Assembly: GCA_023248545.1 (NCBI GenBank)
Contig: JAHFEF010000002.1
Location: 14,908 to 78,907, forward strand
From: Myxococcales bacterium
Lineage (GTDB): Bacteria; Myxococcota; UBA727; JABDBI01
DNA length: 64,000 bases
Direction: 5' to 3'
The position numbers were made by a program, and so were the translations under genes. This document shows, in pieces, positions 623-53,872 of the stretch (position 1 is the stretch's first letter; the number at the start of each line of letters is the position of its first letter). Below the pieces are notes generated by a model that did no database searches, was not told the DNA's origin, and was given only the letters and a program-made list of their open reading frames with translations.

Positions 623-3117
623 AGAGTCTCCCAGGATATCGAAAGTATGCGTCGGCCTCTTTGTGTTAACACATTCAGGTCACCCAATGCTTGCGCGCGC
701 TTAACCATATTGAAAGTATAGGTTTTGCCTGGGATTGGAAGGTCTTTTTGGGGTTCGCTCACCACTTGCAAAAATACACCCGTATTAGGACCACCTTTGT
801 GCAACTGGCCAGTCGAATGCAAAAATCGTGGTCCAAAGCCCAGTGTAGTCGCGACTTTTTTGGAATCTCGTATTTTTATGCGTAGTTTTTGCAAGATTTG
901 CTGGGTTTCTGCGTTCATGGGCACAAAGGCTTGAAGGGCAAAATAGTCGCCGGGTTTAATTTGGGCGAGCAGGCTTTCTAGTGTTGGGGACTTGCCTGCC
1001 GGAGCTTTGGCGTAGGCAGGATTTTCCATTAATCGCCGTGCTTCTACTTTAGCCGCTTCGACGTCAGGTTGATCAAACGCGTTAATACCCAATATTTTTC
1101 CAGCCAAAGCCGTCGCGATTTCCCAACGGTAAAACTCAGCGCCGATGTGAATCAAATCTGGCACTTCGATTCTAATTACGGGATGTCCCGCGCGTTCTAA
1201 TTTTTCAACCGCTGTTTCTAAAGAGCTATCACCGGCCAGGTGCATGTACACAAAAGCGCGATCGGAGCCATACACGCCAGGAGTGCCGACGGGCTCACCG
1301 ACGATTGGAATTAACCCTTTGTTTTGTTTTCCGGTAGACTCTGCGAGAAGCTGTTCGATCCAGTCTCCTAGGTGTGCGAGTTTTTCTGGGGCGATCAGTG
1401 TGACTTTGTCACGGCCTTTCAGGGCCAGTTGCCCTAAAGACAGCCCCAAACGTGCACCTGGGTTTTCTCGAGGTTTTAAGCTTTCACAGGCCTCGCGCAT
1501 GGCGCATGCATGTTGCAAAAGCGTCTGGGTATCCACGCCCATGAGCTGTGCTGGCACTAGACCAAAATTAGACAGCGCCGAGTAACGCCCACCGATAGAT
1601 TTTAGGCCGTAATAAATCGCCCCAAACCCGCGTTGTTTTGCAATTGCTTCAAGCTGCGATCCTGGATCTGTGATCGCGATAAAATTTTTAGGATTTTTAG
1701 ATTTCTCAAAAAAATAATCCATAAAAATATTGGGTTCAAGTGTGCTTCCCGACTTGCTCGACACGATAAATAGTGTGTTTTTGAAATCAAGTTGTTTCTC
1801 TGTTGCTGCGATTTGTTCAGGATCGGTAGAATCGACGACATAGAATTTCGAAGCGTCTTTGAAAGGCCCTAGGGTTCTATTTAAGACGTCTGGGGCCAAA
1901 CTGGATCCGCCCATTCCGAGCAGCACCACGGCGCTGGTCGACTTGTCCACCGAAGCCTTGGCGTAGGTGGAGGTCACCACATCCAACCACCCCAACCAGG
2001 CATTGGTTTTTTCTTCTTCCCAGAGGTTTTCGATTTCGGTGATTTTGGGTGGGTGCTTGGCTTCGATCGCTGCGAGCATTTTGTCGAAAGGCTCTGAAAA
2101 CAGCTTGATGCCGTCACTTAAGAGTGAGGCCGTGACTTGCTTGAAAGAAACTCCAGCCTGCTTGAGCTCATCCATGGCTTTTGTGGCTTCCGATAAATCA
2201 GCTTCGAGCGTATTTTTAACCTCGCCATGATCTAAAAATGCTTGATAGGTTGCTGGCGGAATCGTATTGACTGTATTGGGACCGATTAACTGCTCGACGT
2301 AGAGCACATCGCGATAGGCTGGATTTTTGGTGCTGGTGCTGGCCCAGAGGAGACGCTGGGTTTGTGCTCCAGCCTTGGCAAGCTTGGCCCAGCGGGGGCT
2401 CGCATAGAGCTCTTGATGATACTTGTAAGTCAGCTTGGCATTGGCGATGGCGATTTTGCCGGCTACTTGTGGGGCCATTTTATCAACCATCGAATCAATG
2501 CGGCTCACAAAAAAGCTGGCCACGCTGGCGATATGGGCAATCTCAAGACCTTGTTTGACTCGAGTTTCAAGACCCTTGATAAAAGCTTCGGCTGCTTGCG
2601 CATATAGTTCTTGGGCAAACAATAAAGTGACGTTGATATTGATGCCGTCAGCAATTAGCTGCTCAATGACAGGGATACATTCGGGGGTGCCTGGAACTTT
2701 AATCATAATATTAGCGCGATTGACGCGGGCCCAGAGGCGTCTGGCTTCCGCGAGTGTTCCTGCTGCATCCAGCGCCAAATGCGGCGAGACTTCCAAACTC
2801 ACGTAACCATCTAAGCGTTTTGTTTTTTGATAAGTTTCTGCAAAGATATCAGCTGCGTCTTGGACGTCTCTAATTGCCAGAGCTTCGTATAAATCAACCG
2901 GTCTTAAAACCTGCTCTTGGTTAAGCTTACCGAGAAAATCATCATATTCGTTACCAGATGTGACAGCTTTTTCGAAAATCGCAGGATTGGATGTAACCCC
3001 ACGTAGACCTTCTTCGTCGACCATGCGTTTAAGCTCGCCCGACGTGATGAGGCTACGTTGAATAAAATCAAGCCAGACCGATTGGCCGGCTGCTGCCAAT
3101 TTTTGAAGAGAGTTCAT
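607..3117 (-). CDS. Bifunctional transaldolase / glucose-6-phosphate isomerase
   Basis: 836 aa. The N-terminal ~350 aa is transaldolase-like (SVWLDFIQR, TSNPAIF, IKVPGT). The C-terminal half is PGI-like (sugar isomerase, SKSGSTLE, GGRYS). It overlaps the gnd start by 16 nt, so this looks like a pentose-phosphate operon. Confidence 0.85.
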   Translation of the reverse strand: MNSLQKLAAAGQSVWLDFIQRSLITSGELKRMVDEEGLRGVTSNPAIFEKAVTSGNEYDDFLGKLNQEQVLRPVDLYEALAIRDVQDAADIFAETYQKTKRLDGYVSLEVSPHLALDAAGTLAEARRLWARVNRANIMIKVPGTPECIPVIEQLIADGININVTLLFAQELYAQAAEAFIKGLETRVKQGLEIAHIASVASFFVSRIDSMVDKMAPQVAGKIAIANAKLTYKYHQELYASPRWAKLAKAGAQTQRLLWASTSTKNPAYRDVLYVEQLIGPNTVNTIPPATYQAFLDHGEVKNTLEADLSEATKAMDELKQAGVSFKQVTASLLSDGIKLFSEPFDKMLAAIEAKHPPKITEIENLWEEEKTNAWLGWLDVVTSTYAKASVDKSTSAVVLLGMGGSSLAPDVLNRTLGPFKDASKFYVVDSTDPEQIAATEKQLDFKNTLFIVSSKSGSTLEPNIFMDYFFEKSKNPKNFIAITDPGSQLEAIAKQRGFGAIYYGLKSIGGRYSALSNFGLVPAQLMGVDTQTLLQHACAMREACESLKPRENPGARLGLSLGQLALKGRDKVTLIAPEKLAHLGDWIEQLLAESTGKQNKGLIPIVGEPVGTPGVYGSDRAFVYMHLAGDSSLETAVEKLERAGHPVIRIEVPDLIHIGAEFYRWEIATALAGKILGINAFDQPDVEAAKVEARRLMENPAYAKAPAGKSPTLESLLAQIKPGDYFALQAFVPMNAETQQILQKLRIKIRDSKKVATTLGFGPRFLHSTGQLHKGGPNTGVFLQVVSEPQKDLPIPGKTYTFNMVKRAQALGDLNVLTQRGRRILSISWETLCKLE

Positions 3118-11436: not shown

Positions 11437-12449
11437 AGTTGTGCTCGAATAAAAGAACCTACTTCTTGGGTTGTTTTTTGTCCACCCAGATCAGGGGTGC
11501 AGATGTTGCGCTCGATGGCTTGTTTAACTGCCTCTCGGAGTTTTTTCGCGGGTTCAAAGAGCTTTAAGAAGTCGAGTAACATGGCAGCACTTAAAAACGC
11601 AGCCATTGGGTTCGCTTTATTTTGGCCGGCAATATCCGGCGCTGAGCCATGTACGGGCTCAAACAGGCCAATCCTGCCAGGGTGAATATTCGCACTGGCC
11701 GCAAGTCCTAAGCCGCCGGTGATTCCAGCCCCTAAGTCGGTCAAAATATCGCCAAATAAATTCGAAGTCACGACGATCTCAAATTGCTCTGGGGCCCTGA
11801 CAAACTCCATGGCCATGGTATCGATATAAAGCTGTTTGGCTTTGATTTTCGGATATTTTGGCGCGATCTCGTTGAAAACACGTTGCCAGAGGGCGCCACC
11901 AAATTTGATCGCATTGGATTTGTGGCCAAGCGTGACTGATTTTTGAGCACACTCAAATGCCTGTGTGATGATTCGGGCCACACCTGCATAAGTGTGCCGG
12001 CTCTCGTCAATCGTTGTTTCTTGGGGTGTGTTCTTGTTCGAAGCGCTGCCGTGACCCCCATAGATATCTTGCGTATTTTCTCGAAAAATGATGAAATTAA
12101 TATCGTCGCAGGTTTTATTTTTGAGGCAAGTTAATTTGTTGTTTAAGAGCTGAATCGGCCTCATATTGGCATACAAGTCAAGACCTGTTCGTAAACCAAG
12201 CAAGATCTCGCGGCCGTGGGCCATGTCGGGGATTCTCGGATCTCCCAAAGCTCCAAAATAGATCGCGTCAAAATCAGACAAATTTTTGAGCGCGTCTGGG
12301 GGCAATCCTATGCCTTCGGAAAGCCACTTGTTTGCACCCCAACCAAAGTGGGTGAGTTCGAAACCGAGTTGTTCCAATACAGGAGCCCCTTCGGCAATCA
12401 CTTCGGGCCCGATGCCATCTCCGGGAATAACCGCAATTTTTTTAGACAT
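11433..12449 (-). CDS. Isocitrate/isopropylmalate dehydrogenase-family enzyme (3-isopropylmalate or tartrate dehydrogenase-like)
   Basis: 338 aa: KIAVIPGDGIGPEV, NLFGDILTDLGAGITGGLG, typical ICDH/IPMDH fold signatures. Confidence 0.75.
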   Translation of the reverse strand: MSKKIAVIPGDGIGPEVIAEGAPVLEQLGFELTHFGWGANKWLSEGIGLPPDALKNLSDFDAIYFGALGDPRIPDMAHGREILLGLRTGLDLYANMRPIQLLNNKLTCLKNKTCDDINFIIFRENTQDIYGGHGSASNKNTPQETTIDESRHTYAGVARIITQAFECAQKSVTLGHKSNAIKFGGALWQRVFNEIAPKYPKIKAKQLYIDTMAMEFVRAPEQFEIVVTSNLFGDILTDLGAGITGGLGLAASANIHPGRIGLFEPVHGSAPDIAGQNKANPMAAFLSAAMLLDFLKLFEPAKKLREAVKQAIERNICTPDLGGQKTTQEVGSFIRAQL

Positions 12450-12690
12450 TTTGTCGCAGTCTCTGCATCATGGCTTCATGTTGGGCGTCTAATAGTTTGT
12501 CAACCCGGACTTCTTCATCTCCAGGGCGCTTTTTGACGCTGATTAAGTGTCCGTAGTAAGCCATACACTCTTCGAAGACATCTGGTGCCCCCAAGGGGGC
12601 CAAAATGGAGGTAATAATACTTGCCGGCGAAACAGGCTGAGCAGGGGGTGGTGCACCACGTATCATACCCGTACTTAGTCTTGGACCCAC
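12442..12690 (-). CDS. Hypothetical protein (82 aa)
   Basis: ORF only. It overlaps the dehydrogenase start by 8 nt. No recognisable motif. Confidence 0.3.
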   Translation of the reverse strand: MGPRLSTGMIRGAPPPAQPVSPASIITSILAPLGAPDVFEECMAYYGHLISVKKRPGDEEVRVDKLLDAQHEAMMQRLRQNV

Positions 12691-12761
12691 TTTTTTGGCT
12701 GATATTCGCGATGGGTGGCCACTATGAATAAACCCATTTTTAGACTATTTATCTCAGTCTC

Positions 12762-14450
12762 ATGGGCCTGATTCAAGTTTTAAATGAAATTACTGCCAAT
12801 CAAATTGCGGCTGGCGAAGTCGTTGAGCGTCCGGCTTCTGTGGTCAAAGAACTCATTGAAAATGCCCTCGACGCCGGTGCTATCCAAATCGATGTTCAAA
12901 TTGAGGAAGGCGGTATCCGTCGGTTGATTATCACGGATAACGGCGTGGGAATGGCTCCAGACGACGCCGTCTTGTGCTTTTCACGCTATGCCACCAGCAA
13001 GATTAAAAGTGTCAACGATCTGGGCTCTCTCATATCTTTTGGATTTCGGGGCGAAGCATTGGCGTCGATTGCATCGGTCAGCAAAGTTACACTCACCACC
13101 CGGCAGGCTTCTTCTCAATTAGCCACGCAGGTTGTCATACAGGGCGGAAAAATCTTAAATATTGGCGAATCGGGCGGCCCTGTTGGGACAAGAATCGAGA
13201 TCGAATCGCTGTTTTTTAACACCCCGGCCAGGCTCAAGTTCTTAAAAAGCACCCGATCTGAAAGTGCTGCGATCGAGAGCGTTGTTCGCGAAGCGGCGCT
13301 GTCTAAGCCAGAAACAGGTTTTCGATTTCAAACAGACGGCGTTTTAAAATTGGAAGCACGCCAGGCACTTTCGCAGGACCGACGCCTCGAAAGATCAATT
13401 AGTTGCTTGGGTGAAGACTGCCGAGACTATTTGTTCCCCGTTGAAACAAAAACAGATTTTTTGAAACTTTCTGGCTATATCGTCGCGCCGTTGGTGACGC
13501 GCAAGGACAGCCTGGGGATCTATCTCTATGTGAACAACCGATATGTGCGCGATAAACAGTTGGTGCAAGCCATTAAAGTCGCCTATCGAACACTCTTAGA
13601 AATCGGCAGGCATCCGGTTTGTGCGCTGAATCTTGAGTTAAACCCTGAAGAAGTCGATATCAACGTTCACCCCCAGAAGCTTGAAGTTCGTTTTTCAGAC
13701 CCATCGCGAGTTCAAAGCCATGTGATTAGATTGCTCAGTGATTTTTTGGCGACGACACCTTGGTTAAAACATGAAGCGCCAGAAAGAACTTATGTTTTAA
13801 GGGAACCTGTGGCGGCGTTTGAAATACCCTTGTCTGCGCCCCCAATTCACAACCTCGGCGGCGCCGAGCGTTATGTTGACCTGAGAATTATTGGACAAGT
13901 TGACAACACTTTTTTGCTGTTAGAAGGCCAGAAGTCTATGATCGTGTTGGACCAGCATGCAGCCCATGAGCGTGTTGTGTTTGAAAAAGTCCAAGCCCGA
14001 GTGAAAGAAAGCGCTGCTCCTTCTCAAAGTTTACTTTTTCCAGTGACGATCACGCTTTCCCCGACAGATATGAACACCCTGTCGGAGAAAAAAGATTTGT
14101 TTCTGCCATTTGGGTTCGAGATAGAGCCTTTTGGAGATAATCAGGCGATCGTCAAAGCCGCACCGCCCGGCCTTAAAACCGAGTTTGTTGCCCAAATCAT
14201 TAAAGACACACTGTCTGATCTGGGAAAAACAGACCGCCCCGATAGTTTAAACTCCTTCTCCGATCATATTTGTGCTCAAATCGCGTGCCATACTTCGGTC
14301 AGAGCGGGCCAAAAATTGGATCACAGCGAAATCAGAGCGCTGTTGGAGCAGCTGGATGTTATCGACTATGCCGCACACTGTCCGCATGGACGTCCTGTGG
14401 TTCGTTCGATTCCTTTTGGTGAGATGGGTCAATGGTTTCACAGAACATAG
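12762..14450 (+). CDS. mutL: DNA mismatch repair protein MutL
   Basis: 562 aa. GHKL ATPase N-terminus (IAAGEVVERPASVVKELIENALDAGA, DNGVGM, GFRGEAL). The mutL-miaA synteny is conserved. Confidence 0.9.
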   Translation: MGLIQVLNEITANQIAAGEVVERPASVVKELIENALDAGAIQIDVQIEEGGIRRLIITDNGVGMAPDDAVLCFSRYATSKIKSVNDLGSLISFGFRGEALASIASVSKVTLTTRQASSQLATQVVIQGGKILNIGESGGPVGTRIEIESLFFNTPARLKFLKSTRSESAAIESVVREAALSKPETGFRFQTDGVLKLEARQALSQDRRLERSISCLGEDCRDYLFPVETKTDFLKLSGYIVAPLVTRKDSLGIYLYVNNRYVRDKQLVQAIKVAYRTLLEIGRHPVCALNLELNPEEVDINVHPQKLEVRFSDPSRVQSHVIRLLSDFLATTPWLKHEAPERTYVLREPVAAFEIPLSAPPIHNLGGAERYVDLRIIGQVDNTFLLLEGQKSMIVLDQHAAHERVVFEKVQARVKESAAPSQSLLFPVTITLSPTDMNTLSEKKDLFLPFGFEIEPFGDNQAIVKAAPPGLKTEFVAQIIKDTLSDLGKTDRPDSLNSFSDHICAQIACHTSVRAGQKLDHSEIRALLEQLDVIDYAAHCPHGRPVVRSIPFGEMGQWFHRT

Positions 14451-15286
14451 TTGTTATTGCCGGTCCAACGGCGTCAGGTAAAAGCGCTCTGGCCATGCAG
14501 ATGGCGCAGGAGCTGGGCGGTGAGATTATTTGCGCCGACAGCCGGCAAATCTATCAACGCATGTCAATCGGTACGGCTTGTCCGAGCCCCGAAGAGTATG
14601 CATGTGTTCCCCATCATGGCTTCGAGCAATTAGACCCGCGCGAAAATTACAGTGCTGGACAATTTATCAAAGATGCCGATGCTTATGTGCAAGAAATCCA
14701 AGCGCGCAACAAAACGCCTATTTTAGTGGGTGGGACTGGCTTGTACTTGCGAGCCTGGCGCTTTGGGTTGGACGATGTGTTGCCCGCGGACCCTCAGATT
14801 CGTGAAAAACTCGAACAAGCATCGCTCGAAGAGCTTTATCAAAAACTGCAGGCGCTGGACCCGGTGAGTGCAGAATATATCAAACCTAACGATTCTGTGC
14901 GGATTAAACGTGCTTTGGAGATCTATGGAGTTACTGGCCAACCAGCCAGCAAGCTGCGTCAAACCAATTGGAATCAAGCTCCTCGGGTGCATGCACGCTG
15001 GATTTTGCTCTGCCGCGACAAAAAAGAGCTCGATTTGAGACTTCAAGCTCGGGTGGCAGAGATGTTCGATCGGGGCTTACTCGAAGAAGCACTTGCACTC
15101 CGAGAATATCTTGGCACAAATGACCCGTTTGAGCGCCTCAAGACGCCGGGTTATCTGGAAGCGTTGCAATTGGCTGATGGTTTGATCTCGAAAGAGCAGG
15201 CACTCGAACTTACTTTTAGGCGCCATCGACAGTATGCAAAGCGCCAAGTGACGTGGTTTCAGAAAGAATCCTGGTGGAACAGTTGA
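14432..15286 (+). CDS. miaA: tRNA dimethylallyltransferase MiaA
   Basis: 284 aa. P-loop IAGPTASGKSALA; DSRQIYQRMSIGTA. Overlaps the mutL stop. Confidence 0.9.
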   Translation: MVSQNIVVIAGPTASGKSALAMQMAQELGGEIICADSRQIYQRMSIGTACPSPEEYACVPHHGFEQLDPRENYSAGQFIKDADAYVQEIQARNKTPILVGGTGLYLRAWRFGLDDVLPADPQIREKLEQASLEELYQKLQALDPVSAEYIKPNDSVRIKRALEIYGVTGQPASKLRQTNWNQAPRVHARWILLCRDKKELDLRLQARVAEMFDRGLLEEALALREYLGTNDPFERLKTPGYLEALQLADGLISKEQALELTFRRHRQYAKRQVTWFQKESWWNS

Positions 15287-15838: not shown

Positions 15839-15913
15839 TGGGGCGTAGACAAGCGGTAAGTCATTGGTTTTTGATACCAACATGCGAAGGTTCGAATCCT
15901 TCCGCCCCAACCA
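15839..15913 (+). tRNA. tRNA-Gln (anticodon UUG)
   Basis: Folded by hand. Acceptor stem TGGGGCG/CGCCCCA, D-stem GAC/GTC with loop AAGCGGTAAG, anticodon stem TTGGT/ACCAA with loop TTTTGAT (anticodon TTG), T-stem GAAGG/CCTTC with loop TTCGAAT, discriminator A, encoded CCA. It resembles E. coli tRNA-Gln, including the UGGGG 5' end. Confidence 0.85.
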
Positions 15914-29012: not shown

Positions 29013-30827
29013 TTATAGGCGGCAAACCCGTTTTAAGCGACAGTCTGAACAAGAAGTTTGAATATCGGCCGGTACATGGCCCTGTAACACCGGTTCTAAC
29101 AAAGCTTGCAACGCTTGATCTAACTCGGGCAAGCGATCGGTCATGTCGATCAAGGGTCCTGGGGCGCCGTCTCGAATAGATATGGGGTAGCCAAGAAGTT
29201 GTTTGTGTGACCCTAACGCTCTCAAATAAATAGGTATCTGAAAATGCGTTTTCAAGATTTCTTTCGAAGCAAAGCGCATTCGAAGAGCACTCAAGGCGGA
29301 TAATTTATAATCAACGACGATTTGAGCCTCTGGGTTTGTATCAACTCGATCGATCACGCCGCCAATGTGAATTTTGTCCGTGCCGACCAAAAGCTCAAAC
29401 GACTCTGGTCGGTGTTCAAAAAATACGGGCTTAGCGTTCGCAATGGGCGGATTTTTTTCCAAATTAGATACCAGTCGCCGAAGCGCTTCACGAAGCCAAA
29501 GCAGATTGGCTCGCCATACACCTGGATGCGTGTCTTTGGGATCTGCCTGTGCAAGCGTGAGCTGAATCTCTTGGCCATCACGATAATATTTTTCGAGTGC
29601 CTCGTGTGCCACCTGACCCAGGACACGCATATCGATGTCGTGTCTTGCCGGGGGACTCAGATCGATTTTCAACAGCTTTTCAACAAATGCCCGAAAGCGA
29701 CACTGCGCAAAAGCTTCTATTCGGGTGGCGCTCAGTGGCTTTTCCGGATTTAAACCCAATAGATCGCCAAATTGTTTTCGAAAACGAATGGGATCCAACC
29801 TCACCCCTAACCCCTCTCCACCCAGTGGAGAGGGGAATTTTTGGGAACGTTTAGCAGCCTGAAAAACTTGCTCCAGCTTATTAAGCGGTCTGTTTAACTG
29901 AGTAATTCCCTCGTTTTCGCTGAGCCAATCAAGTTTCGCTAATTCGCTCATGGTCTGCGCCTGACCACTTTGATCCAACGCCGAGCTGGTCAAAACTAAA
30001 AACTTGGCCGCGCTACAAGCCCCCAAAAACCACATGGGCTCAAGTGCTTGCTTGGCTGGGAACAAACTGGGTTCTAGCAGGTCTTCTTCGAAGCGCCGTA
30101 AAACTTGATGACCCATGAGACAATTAATCTCAAAGCAGTCAGAATCTCGCAGTGGCCAATCTGGTTCGCGTGAAAGTGTCAGACGCCCATGTGCACAGTC
30201 GGCAATCACCACCCCATCCAATTGCTTGCCCAGCAAATCGGGTAGCGCCAAAACTGGCGTGTCCAACTCATGTGCACGCAGGGCATCTCGAAATATCAAT
30301 GCTCTTTTATCCAGCACACGCATTGCGACGGCAATATTTTTATCCCGACCGTAGCCAGCCACAACTTGGGCCACAAAACGTGCTTCTTGCACCAAGTCCG
30401 GCGCTTCATAACGCACCAGGCGCTCTGGTTTTACGAACGGCTTAAAGATAATTTCCAAGTTTTTTAAGTCATGATGCTGTTCGATTCGATGGGCCAAATA
30501 GGTAATGGGCAAACTCAATCCGTGGCCTGATGAATCTACTGGAAACTCAAAACGAATTTTGACACCCAACTCCGCCAGTCTAAACAAATAGGCCAGTTCG
30601 AGTTCGCTCAAATCTACCCGATTTGAAATCACCAGGTGATCAAAGTCAGGCTTTTGGGTGAGTGCCTGATAGGATCGTAAAAAATCTAAACTTTGATCCG
30701 GCTGGTGCTCAAGCGCTTGGAGCGGGGTTAGAATTTCACGCAAACGGGGCGAAAGCCCCGGCTTGGCCAATATTTCGCTCGGAGAACTTAAGCCATGAAT
30801 CAGCGCCCGAAAGAGTTTTAGCGTCAC
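29013..30827 (-). CDS. PD-(D/E)XK nuclease-family protein with an AddB/Cas4-type iron-sulfur nuclease domain and no helicase motifs
   Basis: 604 aa. The C-terminal ~230 aa carry SATRIEAFAQCRFRAFVEKLL (compare SxSxLExxxxCPxxyF), GGVIDRVD, IVVDYKLS (E/DxK) and a terminal CSDCRLKRVC (C-x2-C-x5-C). This is the 4-Cys 'iron staple' of AddB-type nucleases. The stop is 7 nt before the pqqD-like ATG. Confidence 0.65.
   Translation of the reverse strand: MTLKLFRALIHGLSSPSEILAKPGLSPRLREILTPLQALEHQPDQSLDFLRSYQALTQKPDFDHLVISNRVDLSELELAYLFRLAELGVKIRFEFPVDSSGHGLSLPITYLAHRIEQHHDLKNLEIIFKPFVKPERLVRYEAPDLVQEARFVAQVVAGYGRDKNIAVAMRVLDKRALIFRDALRAHELDTPVLALPDLLGKQLDGVVIADCAHGRLTLSREPDWPLRDSDCFEINCLMGHQVLRRFEEDLLEPSLFPAKQALEPMWFLGACSAAKFLVLTSSALDQSGQAQTMSELAKLDWLSENEGITQLNRPLNKLEQVFQAAKRSQKFPSPLGGEGLGVRLDPIRFRKQFGDLLGLNPEKPLSATRIEAFAQCRFRAFVEKLLKIDLSPPARHDIDMRVLGQVAHEALEKYYRDGQEIQLTLAQADPKDTHPGVWRANLLWLREALRRLVSNLEKNPPIANAKPVFFEHRPESFELLVGTDKIHIGGVIDRVDTNPEAQIVVDYKLSALSALRMRFASKEILKTHFQIPIYLRALGSHKQLLGYPISIRDGAPGPLIDMTDRLPELDQALQALLEPVLQGHVPADIQTSCSDCRLKRVCRL
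29797..29836 (-). repeat. Palindromic element, copy A (about 40 bp; 10-11 bp stem CCCCTCTCCAC/GTGGAGAGGGG), inserted in-frame in the nuclease-like CDS
   Basis: Plus strand: aacctcacccctaacccctctccacccagtggagagggga. Its reverse complement is ~85-90% identical to copy B at 51482-51520. In the nuclease-like protein it encodes FPSPLGGEGLGVRLD. Confidence 0.6.
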
Positions 30828-51128: not shown

Positions 51129-51725
51129 TTGATTCTCATCCTGGCGTTATTAAAACCGCTGGGTCATGATATCGCTTTTATCGTGGCTTTTGTGTATCAG
51201 CTGTATGTTCCATTATGGCTAGGCTACACAGTTCGATTACAACCGGATGCTTTGAAAGCGGATTTAATTCGAGTCGCCTGGATTTCTGTCGTGACGTTCT
51301 CTGGCTACGCTTTTGCTTATTATTGGTTTCAGCATTTTTGGGCGGCGCATCAGGGCTATCAAGTTTACTTTCATCCGGTGTTTTCTTGGAGTTTGCTTTG
51401 GGGCTTTGTGGTCAATCTGGCTATTATCGCCTTTCCTGAAGAAGTATTTTATCGAGGCTATCTCCAGAGCCGCCTTTTAAGTCCCTCTCCACAGGGTGGA
51501 GAGGGATTTAGGGTGAGGTTTGTGATTCTGTTTGTTAGCTTTCTCTTTGCCCTGGGCCACTTTGTGGGCGAGTACGACCCAGTTCGCCTGCTCCCCTTCT
51601 TTCCTGGTTTAGTTTTCTCGTGGCTTGTTTATCGCTCGGGCTCTATCGCAGGCGCGACACTTTATCATGCCCTTTGCAATAGTTTCTCGGAGTGGTTAGC
51701 GTCCAGTTATCACTGGAGCCACTGA
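51129..51725 (+). CDS. CPBP-family intramembrane metalloprotease (CAAX protease/Abi)
   Basis: 198 aa. EEVFYRGYL (motif 1), FALGH (motif 2), HALCN (motif 3). TTG start as called in the track. Contains the in-frame palindromic element (SPSPQGGEGFRVR). Confidence 0.7.
   Translation: MILILALLKPLGHDIAFIVAFVYQLYVPLWLGYTVRLQPDALKADLIRVAWISVVTFSGYAFAYYWFQHFWAAHQGYQVYFHPVFSWSLLWGFVVNLAIIAFPEEVFYRGYLQSRLLSPSPQGGEGFRVRFVILFVSFLFALGHFVGEYDPVRLLPFFPGLVFSWLVYRSGSIAGATLYHALCNSFSEWLASSYHWSH
51482..51520 (+). repeat. Palindromic element, copy B, inserted in-frame in the CPBP protease CDS
   Basis: tccctctccacagggtggagagggatttagggtgaggtt: stem CCCTCTCCAC/GTGGAGAGGG, 3 nt loop, then tail TTTAGGGTGAGGTT. Encodes SPSPQGGEGFRVR between CPBP motifs 1 and 2. 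Confidence 0.6.
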
Positions 51726-52510: not shown

Positions 52511-52579
52511 TCTGGCATAATCTGAGCTCTTTGCGCGCCCATCATCCTGTTGTTATATACCGCGGACGGTGGCGGAAAC

Positions 52580-53872
52580 ATGAAAGCACTCTTCTTTCTT
52601 TTGGGCTTAGCTCTTATGCCCTCTTGCAGGTCAGAATCTGTGGCTTCTACAGCCCAGAACGGCAATTTAACGATTCTTGACAGCAATCATCGTTCGATGA
52701 AAACGCTTAAAATCCCTTCTAGGCTGATTCAGGTTGGGGTAAGCCTGAGCTCAGAAATTCCATATGTCTCCATAGAATCTGGGCCATCAGCTACTGCACT
52801 GACGCTGTATTGGCAAAACCCGCTCAAAAATCAGCCAGGATTTCTTGTTCGATTTTGCGCGGATCCCCAAAATTGCTCTACTGATTACCAATTGATTGAT
52901 TCAGCTGCATTGGATGCAATGACCGGAACTCTGGAGCTGAACATCCAATTTTCAACCGAGGTGGTTGATTCCACGGGCGTATTACAAGTGATACCCATCT
53001 ATCTATATAGTTCAGAAGCCGAATTCATCCTGGTTGGGAATCTGGCTGAAATCGTATTACACTCCTCAGCAACTGGAGTTAAGGTGAGCTCAGGTGAAGC
53101 GAGCTACGCTGCATCTTTTTTTGAGACAGCTCACACCATAGAAACTTCAACCCTCTTTGCTAAAGCGGCCAATGTGGACTCTGGGATGGCGTTTCTTACA
53201 GGTGTCAACACTGTTACCACTTCTCCCAACGGAGCTTTAACAGCGGCCATTACCACTCCTGATATCTGGTATAAAGACTCCGATGGGGATGGTTATACAA
53301 CGCAAGATATCATTATATCTACTCTCCAGCCAAACGGGTATGTCATTACAAAAAATTTGGCAGATTGTCGTGATGATGATGCCAGTATTTATCCTGGGAA
53401 TGGCTGCGGGAATGGAACCTTTCAGACAAAAATAGATTCTACGCCTGAATACGCAATCACGCTAACTTCAAAATCTATTTTCGTAGGAGATTTCAATAAC
53501 GATGGGAAGCTCGATTTTGCAGCCACCAATTACGATGCCAATACAATGTCTATATGGCTAGGAAATGGCGATGGAACTTTTGGTATAAAAACTGACTACA
53601 ATACGGGCGCAGGTCCATGGGACATTATCGGTTCGGACTTTAATAGCGATGGCAAGCAGGATCTAGCAGTCACGAACTATCATGCGAATACAGTGTCTGT
53701 ATGGCTAGGAAACGGTGATGGAACTTTTGGAACAAGAACCGACTACGATACTGGCGTTGGGCCCTATTCGCTGCTTGTGCGTGATTTCAATAAGGATTCC
53801 AAATATGACCTAGGCATCGTTAATTCAAACAATGACACTGGTGCCACCGTTTCTATGTTGCTAGGAAATTAA
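52580..53872 (+). CDS. Secreted protein (possible lipoprotein) with three tandem FG-GAP/VCBS-type repeats
   Basis: MKALFFLLGLALMPSC signal. C-terminal repeats FVGDFNNDGKLDFAAT...WLGNGDGTFG, repeated three times. Confidence 0.6.
   Translation: MKALFFLLGLALMPSCRSESVASTAQNGNLTILDSNHRSMKTLKIPSRLIQVGVSLSSEIPYVSIESGPSATALTLYWQNPLKNQPGFLVRFCADPQNCSTDYQLIDSAALDAMTGTLELNIQFSTEVVDSTGVLQVIPIYLYSSEAEFILVGNLAEIVLHSSATGVKVSSGEASYAASFFETAHTIETSTLFAKAANVDSGMAFLTGVNTVTTSPNGALTAAITTPDIWYKDSDGDGYTTQDIIISTLQPNGYVITKNLADCRDDDASIYPGNGCGNGTFQTKIDSTPEYAITLTSKSIFVGDFNNDGKLDFAATNYDANTMSIWLGNGDGTFGIKTDYNTGAGPWDIIGSDFNSDGKQDLAVTNYHANTVSVWLGNGDGTFGTRTDYDTGVGPYSLLVRDFNKDSKYDLGIVNSNNDTGATVSMLLGN

Follow-up and report, generated by a model that had tools for sequence, protein, structure and literature searches.

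A 39-nt intrastrand-triplex-type repeat in frame within a CPBP protease gene, and a candidate partnership of its family with DUF559 genes

The protease gene and its insert

The window (the whole stretch of DNA analyzed here, 64 kb in length) carries an intact gene for a CPBP/Rce1-like intramembrane glutamic endopeptidase, with a putative TTG start codon at 51129, in the gene order M50-M16-CPBP-panB. A 39-nt repeat, which we call copy B, lies in frame within this gene, and a second copy of the repeat, copy A, lies in an unrelated gene 21 kb away (Table 1). The protease ORF matches Pfam PF02517 with an E value of 2.4e-17 and 63 bits (cutoff, 22), and it has the EExxxR, FxxxH, and HxxxN/D motifs on successive helices that, together with this domain, characterize CPBP/Rce1-like proteins; residues E104, E105, R109, F140, H144, H180, and N184 are invariant in an alignment of 44 homologues. 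An AlphaFold2 model of the protein (mean pLDDT of 94) has helices at residues 87 to 116, 125 to 148, and 174 to 193. The best match to this model in a Foldseek search of the PDB was the CPBP-like protein SpdC (6u0o_A), but this match was not significant (E value of ~1, TM score of 0.51), and the identity of the protein is therefore based on the Pfam domain and the catalytic motifs.

Table 1. Positions of the features discussed, in window coordinates unless another locus is named
Feature	Position	Strand	Basis or remark
Host gene, CPBP / Rce1-like intramembrane glutamic endopeptidase, 198 aa, intact	51129..51725	+	Pfam PF02517, 51 homologues
CPBP motif 1, EEVFYR (E104, E105, R109)	51438..51455	+	invariant columns, alignments A1 and A2
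CPBP motif 2, FALGH (F140, H144)	51546..51560	+	invariant columns, alignments A1 and A2
CPBP motif 3, HALCN (H180, N184)	51666..51680	+	invariant columns, alignments A1 and A2
Copy B, 39-nt intrastrand-triplex-type repeat	51482..51520	+	direct read, triads, profile and triplex finder, missing in orthologues
Copy B pyrimidine arm	51482-51492	+	
Copy B first loop, 3 nt	51493-51495	+	
Copy B purine arm	51496-51506	+	
Copy B second loop, 3 nt	51507-51509	+	
Copy B mirror purine arm	51510-51520	+	
TAAG, lengthens copy B hairpin to 15 bp, pairs with 51507-51510	51478..51481	+	DNA and RNA folds
Copy A, second 39-nt repeat copy	29797..29835	-	in frame in ORF 29013-30827 (-)
DUF559 gene bracketed by triplex motifs within ~170 nt	L226, 12594-14004		
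DUF559 gene bracketed by triplex motifs within ~170 nt	L242, 1378-1947		
DUF559 gene bracketed by triplex motifs within ~170 nt	L175, 1330-1977		
DUF559 gene bracketed by triplex motifs within ~170 nt	L187, 8708-9218		
DUF559 gene bracketed by triplex motifs within ~170 nt	L244, 1182-1688		
DUF559 genes bracketed by triplex motifs within ~170 nt	L293, L295, L297, L299, L301, around 1300-2050		
ycjD and BoxC TM#9 within ~170 nt	L275, E. coli NC_000913.3 1351205-1351760		

Copy B reads TCCCTCTCCAC-AGG-GTGGAGAGGGA-TTT-AGGGTGAGGTT, an 11-bp hairpin with a 3-nt loop followed by a purine tail, and its codons (51480 to 51518, in the frame of the host ORF) translate to SPSPQGGEGFRVR (S-P-S-P-Q-G-G-E-G-F-R-V-R). 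An initial sequence-only reading had described this segment as a palindrome plus tail in frame within the CPBP gene, and rereading of the sequence and codons agrees with that description; the tail is no mere appendage, however, since it mirrors the purine arm and yields nine canonical purine-motif triads (T-A.A, C-G.G six times, T-A.T, and T-A.A). Folding extends the hairpin by a further 4 bp, pairing 51478-51492 with 51496-51510, and in the DNA alignment with empty sites the TTA codon at 51477-51479 is additional relative to the relatives L002 and L003, so that it may be part of the inserted DNA. Copy B is not a chance match: dinucleotide shuffles gave an expectation of ~0 matches both for the 25-nt palindrome and for the tail pattern GGAGAGGG-N5-GGGTGAGG, the stability of its hairpin is far beyond that of shuffled controls (z of -4.8 as RNA and -5.9 as DNA), and the family profile and a sequence-agnostic triplex-motif finder each recovered exactly two sites in the 64-kb window, namely, copies A and B. 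No Rfam family matched at either copy at the gathering threshold or at a permissive E value, apart from chance matches to miRNA models; the only Rfam match at the gathering threshold in the window is a tRNA gene at 15839-15910.

The insert falls between the EExxxR and FxxxH motifs, bracketed by E104-E105-x3-R109 and F140-x3-H144 as the sequence-only reading had placed it, and that reading's prediction of a position tolerant of insertions is supported by several lines of evidence. The length of the loop between motifs 1 and 2 differs between homologues in our alignments, with one orthologue (L006) having a 6-residue additional stretch of its own at the position of copy B. The insert is hydrophilic, and the hydrophobic segments predicted with and without it, a comparison the same reading had proposed, are identical. 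In the AlphaFold2 model, residues 117 to 124 (LSPSPQGG) form a loop and residues 125 to 132 an N-terminal extension of the following helix, with the lowest confidence (83) at residues 121 to 130. Copy B appears harmless, residing in a surface loop of a protease that is probably still functional. By the positive-inside rule, the loop at residues 117 to 124 would face the cytoplasm. Its persistence would be favored by a length that is a multiple of three, by a frame in use that is devoid of stop codons, by arms that would supply a hydrophilic SPSPQGG linker followed by EGFRVRFV, modeled as part of the next helix, and by a loop whose length already differs among homologues. Tolerance is also largely a matter of the genetic code, a contribution that the first reading had overlooked: three frames are open in copy B and four in copy A, and because the C-rich and G-rich arms encode Pro, Ser, and Gly in all open frames, each encodes a Pro/Ser/Gly/Thr-rich peptide. 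For the CPBP gene the outcome is reassuring and ordinary, that of a small selfish repeat within a tolerant loop of an intact protease gene, and annotators should not take peptides of the SPSPQGGEG type for native motifs.

Gain of copy B and the context of copy A

The copy B segment is missing from all 12 CPBP orthologues with 51 to 82% identity and from all 43 aligned homologues except one 99%-identical sequence (P0001, on L001), which comes from an independent ENA assembly. Relative to the orthologues the window gene has a net gain of 14 codons, and gene order is the same as in the window in the orthologue loci for which DNA was retrieved (L002, L003, and L006). Copy A is present in the same ENA sample (L274), and the recovery of both copies in an independent assembly makes an assembly artifact unlikely. 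The sequence-only reading had proposed a selfish-element insertion rather than a native motif, and had named a homologous segment carried broadly by orthologues as the observation that would count against it; the 12 syntenic orthologues without the segment favor its proposal, to which the identity of the repeat family, described below, can now be added. We infer that copy B was gained by insertion, as opposed to having been lost independently 12 or more times. Its arrival in the CPBP gene would be recent, having taken place in the source MAG's lineage, at a point between the helix that bears EExxxR and the one that bears FxxxH. Our main reading (probability of roughly 0.85) is that copy B represents a single, solitary 39-nt repeat of the BoxC/PIT/TM family, gained recently by the MAG lineage at this interhelix loop.

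The nearest empty site is only ~80% identical, and an alignment at this divergence is too coarse to define the exact boundaries of the insertion or a target-site duplication; terminal inverted repeats were not seen in it. The CPBP gene of the close relative L002 has an empty site, and a two-tailed palindromic copy is instead located between M16 and CPBP, where the window has none. This 53-nt form (L002 2190-2250) consists of a tail, a hairpin, and a second tail, such that a triplex motif can be read on each strand, and it has been taken by the gene caller into an N-terminal extension of the CPBP protein (NLTPNPSPPSGEGFKVRS in P0002).

Copy A resides in a hypervariable linker of a PD-(D/E)XK nuclease-family ORF and encodes PSPLGGEGLGVR; with respect to its host gene, it has the orientation and frame of copy B. 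It also forms nine canonical triads and is identical to copy B at 34 of 39 positions, three of the five differences representing a single triad swap. A linker of similar length is present in the orthologues, for which reason copy A looks like a linker replacement rather than a clean insertion. At all 39 positions it matches a copy carried by another, unrelated gene in a Myxococcaceae MAG (L121), where the same frame is used. Selection is one conceivable reading of the frame that copies A, B, and L121 have in common; we set it aside, as the events are too few and only 3 to 4 of the 6 frames are open; coding copies in other lineages are read in other frames. Separately, two orthologues of the copy A host (P0061 and P0062 in alignment A3) carry a different in-frame repeat at three to four separate loops, with PAKAGIQNRSPDSVDASLRWHDNMG-type peptides and WRRPASLDPGLRQGDMEMG, and this repeat seems to represent a further palindromic family that has inserted into coding DNA.

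A register variant of the BoxC/PIT/TM_ECO family

Copies A and B belong to the BoxC/PIT/TM_ECO intrastrand triplex family (Bergler 1992; Hoyne & Maher 2000; Holder et al. 2015, PMC4666352) as a register variant. Hoyne and Maher came upon BoxC of E. coli anew and described it as the PIT element (Hoyne & Maher 2000), and Holder et al. (PMC4666352), who named it TM_ECO, reported 3,610 copies in 262 proteobacterial genomes and a contrast between E. coli, which carries the motif, and Salmonella, which lacks it. In that study the motif formed a stable triplex as single-stranded DNA in vitro (CD/NMR), whereas no triplex was found in duplex DNA or in vivo; promoter or terminator activity was absent, all 23 copies in E. 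coli MG1655 were intergenic, and no mobility gene was found, while an association with local genome variability and instability in E. coli was noted and replication-stall mechanisms were discussed. Both window copies have the anatomy of this family (a pyrimidine arm, a loop, a purine arm, a loop of ~3 nt, and a mirror arm supporting at least 8 to 9 triads), and their count of nine purine-motif triads equals that of E. coli TM#1. The sequences are nearly identical, with CCCTCTCCC-N3-GGGAGAGGG-TTA/CCG-GGGTGAGGG in E. coli and CCCCTCTCC(AC)-N3-(GT)GGAGAGGGG-TTA-GGGGTGAGG in the window, so that the core and the TTA loop of E. coli type A are common to the window variant. Two loop types, single as well as palindromic paired forms, and presence/absence polymorphism among relatives are further shared features. 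The repeat is also dispersed: it occurs twice in 64 kb and, in identical form, in another MAG, and orthologous sites are empty.

The window copies differ from the published family in several respects. A one-G shift in register (CCCCTCTCC-AC) explains why the published TM_ECO pattern (CCCTCNCCC-N3-6-GGGNGAGGG-N3-GGGNGAGGG) has no match in the 64-kb window, while the same pattern recovers E. coli TM#9; an exact-sequence literature search for the window variant likewise gave no matches. The host MAG is labeled Myxococcota by its depositors and is not a proteobacterium. In contrast to the E. coli copies, which are reported to be always intergenic, both window copies are in frame within intact ORFs with Pfam domains. 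Triplex formation has been measured on the E. coli motif, whereas the window variant is known by its sequence geometry and computed hairpin energies. We also considered a G-quadruplex or telomere-like reading of GGGGTTAGGGG, which is disfavored by a loop that varies freely (CTG, CCG, TTG, and TTT) while the mirror arms are retained, and Shine-Dalgarno-like and rut-site readings, which were unsupported.

The motif family is distributed across many phyla at GC contents of 33 to 73%. An exact pattern recovered 50 stretches in viral contigs of 33 to 72% GC, and a relaxed pattern recovered, among the matches listed for GTDB genomes, Chloroflexota, Cyanobacteria, Planctomycetota, Bacteroidota, CPR groups, Thermoanaerobaculia, Armatimonadota, Elusimicrobia, Alphaproteobacteria, Desulfobulbaceae, Myxococcaceae, and others; 97 metagenome stretches belong to the CCAC-NNN-GTGG subfamily of the window copies. 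We counted covariation in 131 distinct copies, at flanking positions left unconstrained by the search pattern. The stem pair and the third strand covary, being C-G.G or T-A.A and almost never mixed: position 1 was C-G.G in 92 copies and T-A.A in 31, with the stem and third-strand base in disagreement in only 2, and position 10 was C-G.G in 88 copies and T-A.T in 26, counts that are not independent events because repeat copies share descent. Loci below 55% GC had the two position-1 states 25 and 26 times with no mixed cases. Variants with a different core also keep the geometry (CCTTCTCC/GGAGAAGG/GGATGAGG in L295 and CCTCCCCC/GGGGGAGG/GGAGGGGG in L297). The occurrence of the motif far outside the Proteobacteria, with covariation that preserves the triads, argues for selection on the three-stranded geometry itself and lends indirect support to triplex formation by the family.

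Coding copies are not confined to the window. In low-GC loci, 15 of 76 copies lie deep within an open frame, with 60 or more codons on either side, and in-frame copies occur inside or between Pfam-verified domains of GatB, a C39-ABC transporter (nucleotide-binding domain), a RecQ-like helicase, NTP_transferase, and Metallophos proteins. That a sizeable minority of copies is in frame within real proteins goes beyond the published picture. A precedent for such behavior comes from Rickettsia, where Ogata et al. in 2000 reportedly described Rickettsia palindromic elements (RPE) as selfish DNA in frame in protein-coding genes; these are said to be ~100 to 150 bp long, confined to Rickettsia, and devoid of mirror-repeat or triplex geometry. 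Like RPE, copy B is a palindromic repeat in frame in a functional gene, at a surface-exposed position with the reading frame kept, and missing in orthologues. The resemblance is one of behavior only, as the window element is 39 nt in length and belongs to a family spanning many phyla, and its sequence is not shared with the longer RPE.

Two further arrangements of the motif were seen. In several low-GC contigs (L195, L225, L231, and L255) and many Ga0070741 contigs (L179, L192, L200, L208, L209, and others) the 39-nt motif sits within a longer conserved unit, with flanks TCTCTGTCTTTACTCC...TCTCCGAGAG in one and CGACCGGTCCAGACTC...TAAACTACCG in another, and the differing units point to a lineage-specific extended element around a common core. 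A tandem array of three triplex motifs, spaced 45 nt apart, occupies the end of a Caldilineales contig (L086 38-162).

Three other accounts of copy B can be weighed against a recent gain of a BoxC/PIT/TM repeat. The segment might be native, ancestral in the CPBP loop and lost in other lineages; the variable length of this loop and the separate 6-residue stretch of L006 are compatible with such a history, but it is extremely improbable given that the segment is absent from the 12 close orthologues and from all the aligned homologues bar the 99%-identical one, and given that its DNA largely matches a repeat in an unrelated gene that is itself identical to one in another MAG. Somewhat less remote, though still unlikely, is retention of the repeat for its usefulness, either as an mRNA hairpin that pauses translation during membrane insertion of the preceding helix or as a local recombination or mutation hotspot. 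The mRNA hairpin is indeed strong (-31 kcal/mol over 66 nt, z of -4.8), the motif has been linked to local genomic instability in E. coli (Holder et al., PMC4666352), and the three lineage-related coding copies use the same frame. Against usefulness, the orthologues work without the segment, copies occur in unrelated proteins at no shared position or function, frame sharing by three copies is weak evidence when only 3 to 4 of the 6 frames are open, and a citing paper's account of work from Maher's group relates that no promoter, terminator, or polymerase effect was seen in vivo. An ordinary REP moved by a RAYT (IS200/IS605-type Y1) transposase, or an IS-derived MITE, would likewise be a short, dispersed, imperfect palindrome, and the two-tailed form in L002 fits that description. 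We nevertheless consider this very unlikely: most REPs carry a GTAG or CGTC head tetranucleotide, as one account of them has it (PMC3733652), and neither tetranucleotide adjoins the hairpin foot of copy A or B; the conserved mirror repeat would be unexplained by protein dimers or hairpin recognition; and neither Rfam matches nor, with empty sites only ~80% identical, terminal inverted repeats or a target-site duplication were seen.

DUF559 genes and the spread of the repeat

Copy B itself is of moderate interest, and the association of its family with DUF559 genes is the part worth following. Among ~217 motif-selected loci we identified 6 DUF559 ORFs, all 6 with a motif within ~100 nt and at least 4 with motifs on both sides; around DUF559 genes the motifs are often found on both sides and in opposite orientation, and in two of the in-frame cases (L205 and L226) a DUF559 domain adjoins the motifs. 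The E. coli gene ycjD is a DUF559 gene located beside fabI (envM), the site of the first BoxC description. On the downstream side, 168 nt separate ycjD from BoxC TM#9, and a motif-like arm supplies the codons for the C terminus of YcjD (RRSPSP*). Other E. coli phylogroups have the eefRABCD operon rather than ycjD between fabI and sapF (PMC12817139). The bracketing of DUF559 genes by the motif, including ycjD beside the first-described BoxC, goes beyond the published picture, and a literature search recovered no paper linking DUF559 or ycjD to triplex-motif repeats. The 64-kb window itself contains no DUF559 gene.

A DUF559 profile search recovered 7,984 homologues, and motif-derived C-terminal peptides were present in 46 of the best 120 of these, compared with none of 67 controls. 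Five homologues chosen for lack of such a peptide were all flanked by motifs at the DNA level. Because a sequence-specific repeat profile missed variants flanking DUF559 genes, we used a finder based on geometry only, which gave 17 matches in 5.5 kb adjoining DUF559 genes, compared with 3 in 35.9 kb from other parts of these loci, a local enrichment of ~37-fold; 225 kb of shuffled sequence gave none. The link may hold for only one subfamily of DUF559, as the profile was seeded mostly from motif-selected loci. In two families from viral contigs (L277-L290) the flanking repeats are related and noncanonical, and in one viral-contig DUF559 family they have a long second loop and were missed by the finder; in two further contigs (L291 and L292), which end within the DUF559 match and expose only the upstream flank, the 3 kb on that side are free of the motif. 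For many of the DUF559 homologues listed, the longest contig measures only 0.5 to 3 kb, which would fit genes flanked by assembly-breaking repeats, although the collection consists mostly of short contigs.

The flanking of DUF559 genes by motifs suggests a partnership similar to that of REP and RAYT. As in REP/RAYT systems (REPIN), many solitary short structured repeats coexist with a small gene of nuclease type that has copies of the repeat on its flanks. The likeness is one of gene arrangement, and the systems differ in that DUF559 has a Vsr-like PD-(D/E)XK fold whereas RAYT is an HUH Y1 transposase, and in that the triplex motif has a mirror repeat as its conserved feature and no GTAG/CGTC guide tetranucleotide. 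The family may thus have spread by the action in trans of a DUF559 nuclease on a structured single strand, which we regard as the leading candidate mechanism while rating it a little short of even odds. DUF559 genes are bracketed by the motifs much as RAYT genes are by REPs, and solitary motifs would be recognized through their triplex or hairpin structure on single-stranded DNA. Held just as tentatively, BoxC/PIT/triplex repeats would be nonautonomous partners of DUF559 genes; the motif-DUF559-motif cassette would be a mobile or selfish unit in many bacterial phyla, with solitary in-frame copies as its miniature derivatives. The bracketing of DUF559 genes provides a concrete candidate enzyme for a repeat family known for ~30 years whose spread has been unexplained.

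Alternatively, no dedicated enzyme would be involved, and the motif would spread through gene conversion, template switching, or replication slippage where a hairpin or triplex has stalled a fork; the DUF559 cassette would then be targeting existing motifs or be regulated by them; we consider this possible, if less probable. Mechanisms involving replication stalling were considered by Holder et al. (PMC4666352), and numbers are in its favor, as most copies are far from DUF559 genes (only the 6 ORFs among the ~217 motif-selected loci), and E. coli has a single ycjD and 23 motifs, with motif counts of 1 to 29 among strains. It accounts less readily for DUF559 genes that are typically flanked on both sides, often in opposite orientation, like an element with its ends; for whole motif-DUF559-motif cassettes in frame inside other genes (L226 and L205); and for motif sequences that vary by lineage while the triplex geometry beside DUF559 is kept (L295 and L297).

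In L226, an ORF for an Eco57I/MmeI-type DNA methyltransferase (11557-14715) contains an in-frame DUF559 domain flanked by motif-encoded linker arrays (TSPLAPLHEVERG... and SPSPQVERGPGGEV...), with another motif pair downstream, and the whole motif-DUF559 cassette appears to have been inserted in frame in the host gene. A repeat of a different kind is found elsewhere in the window, where an FG-GAP/VCBS-type ORF (52550-53872) contains two tandem copies of a 128-nt unit with 79% identity and 147-nt spacing (53489-53763), which look like ordinary protein-repeat units.
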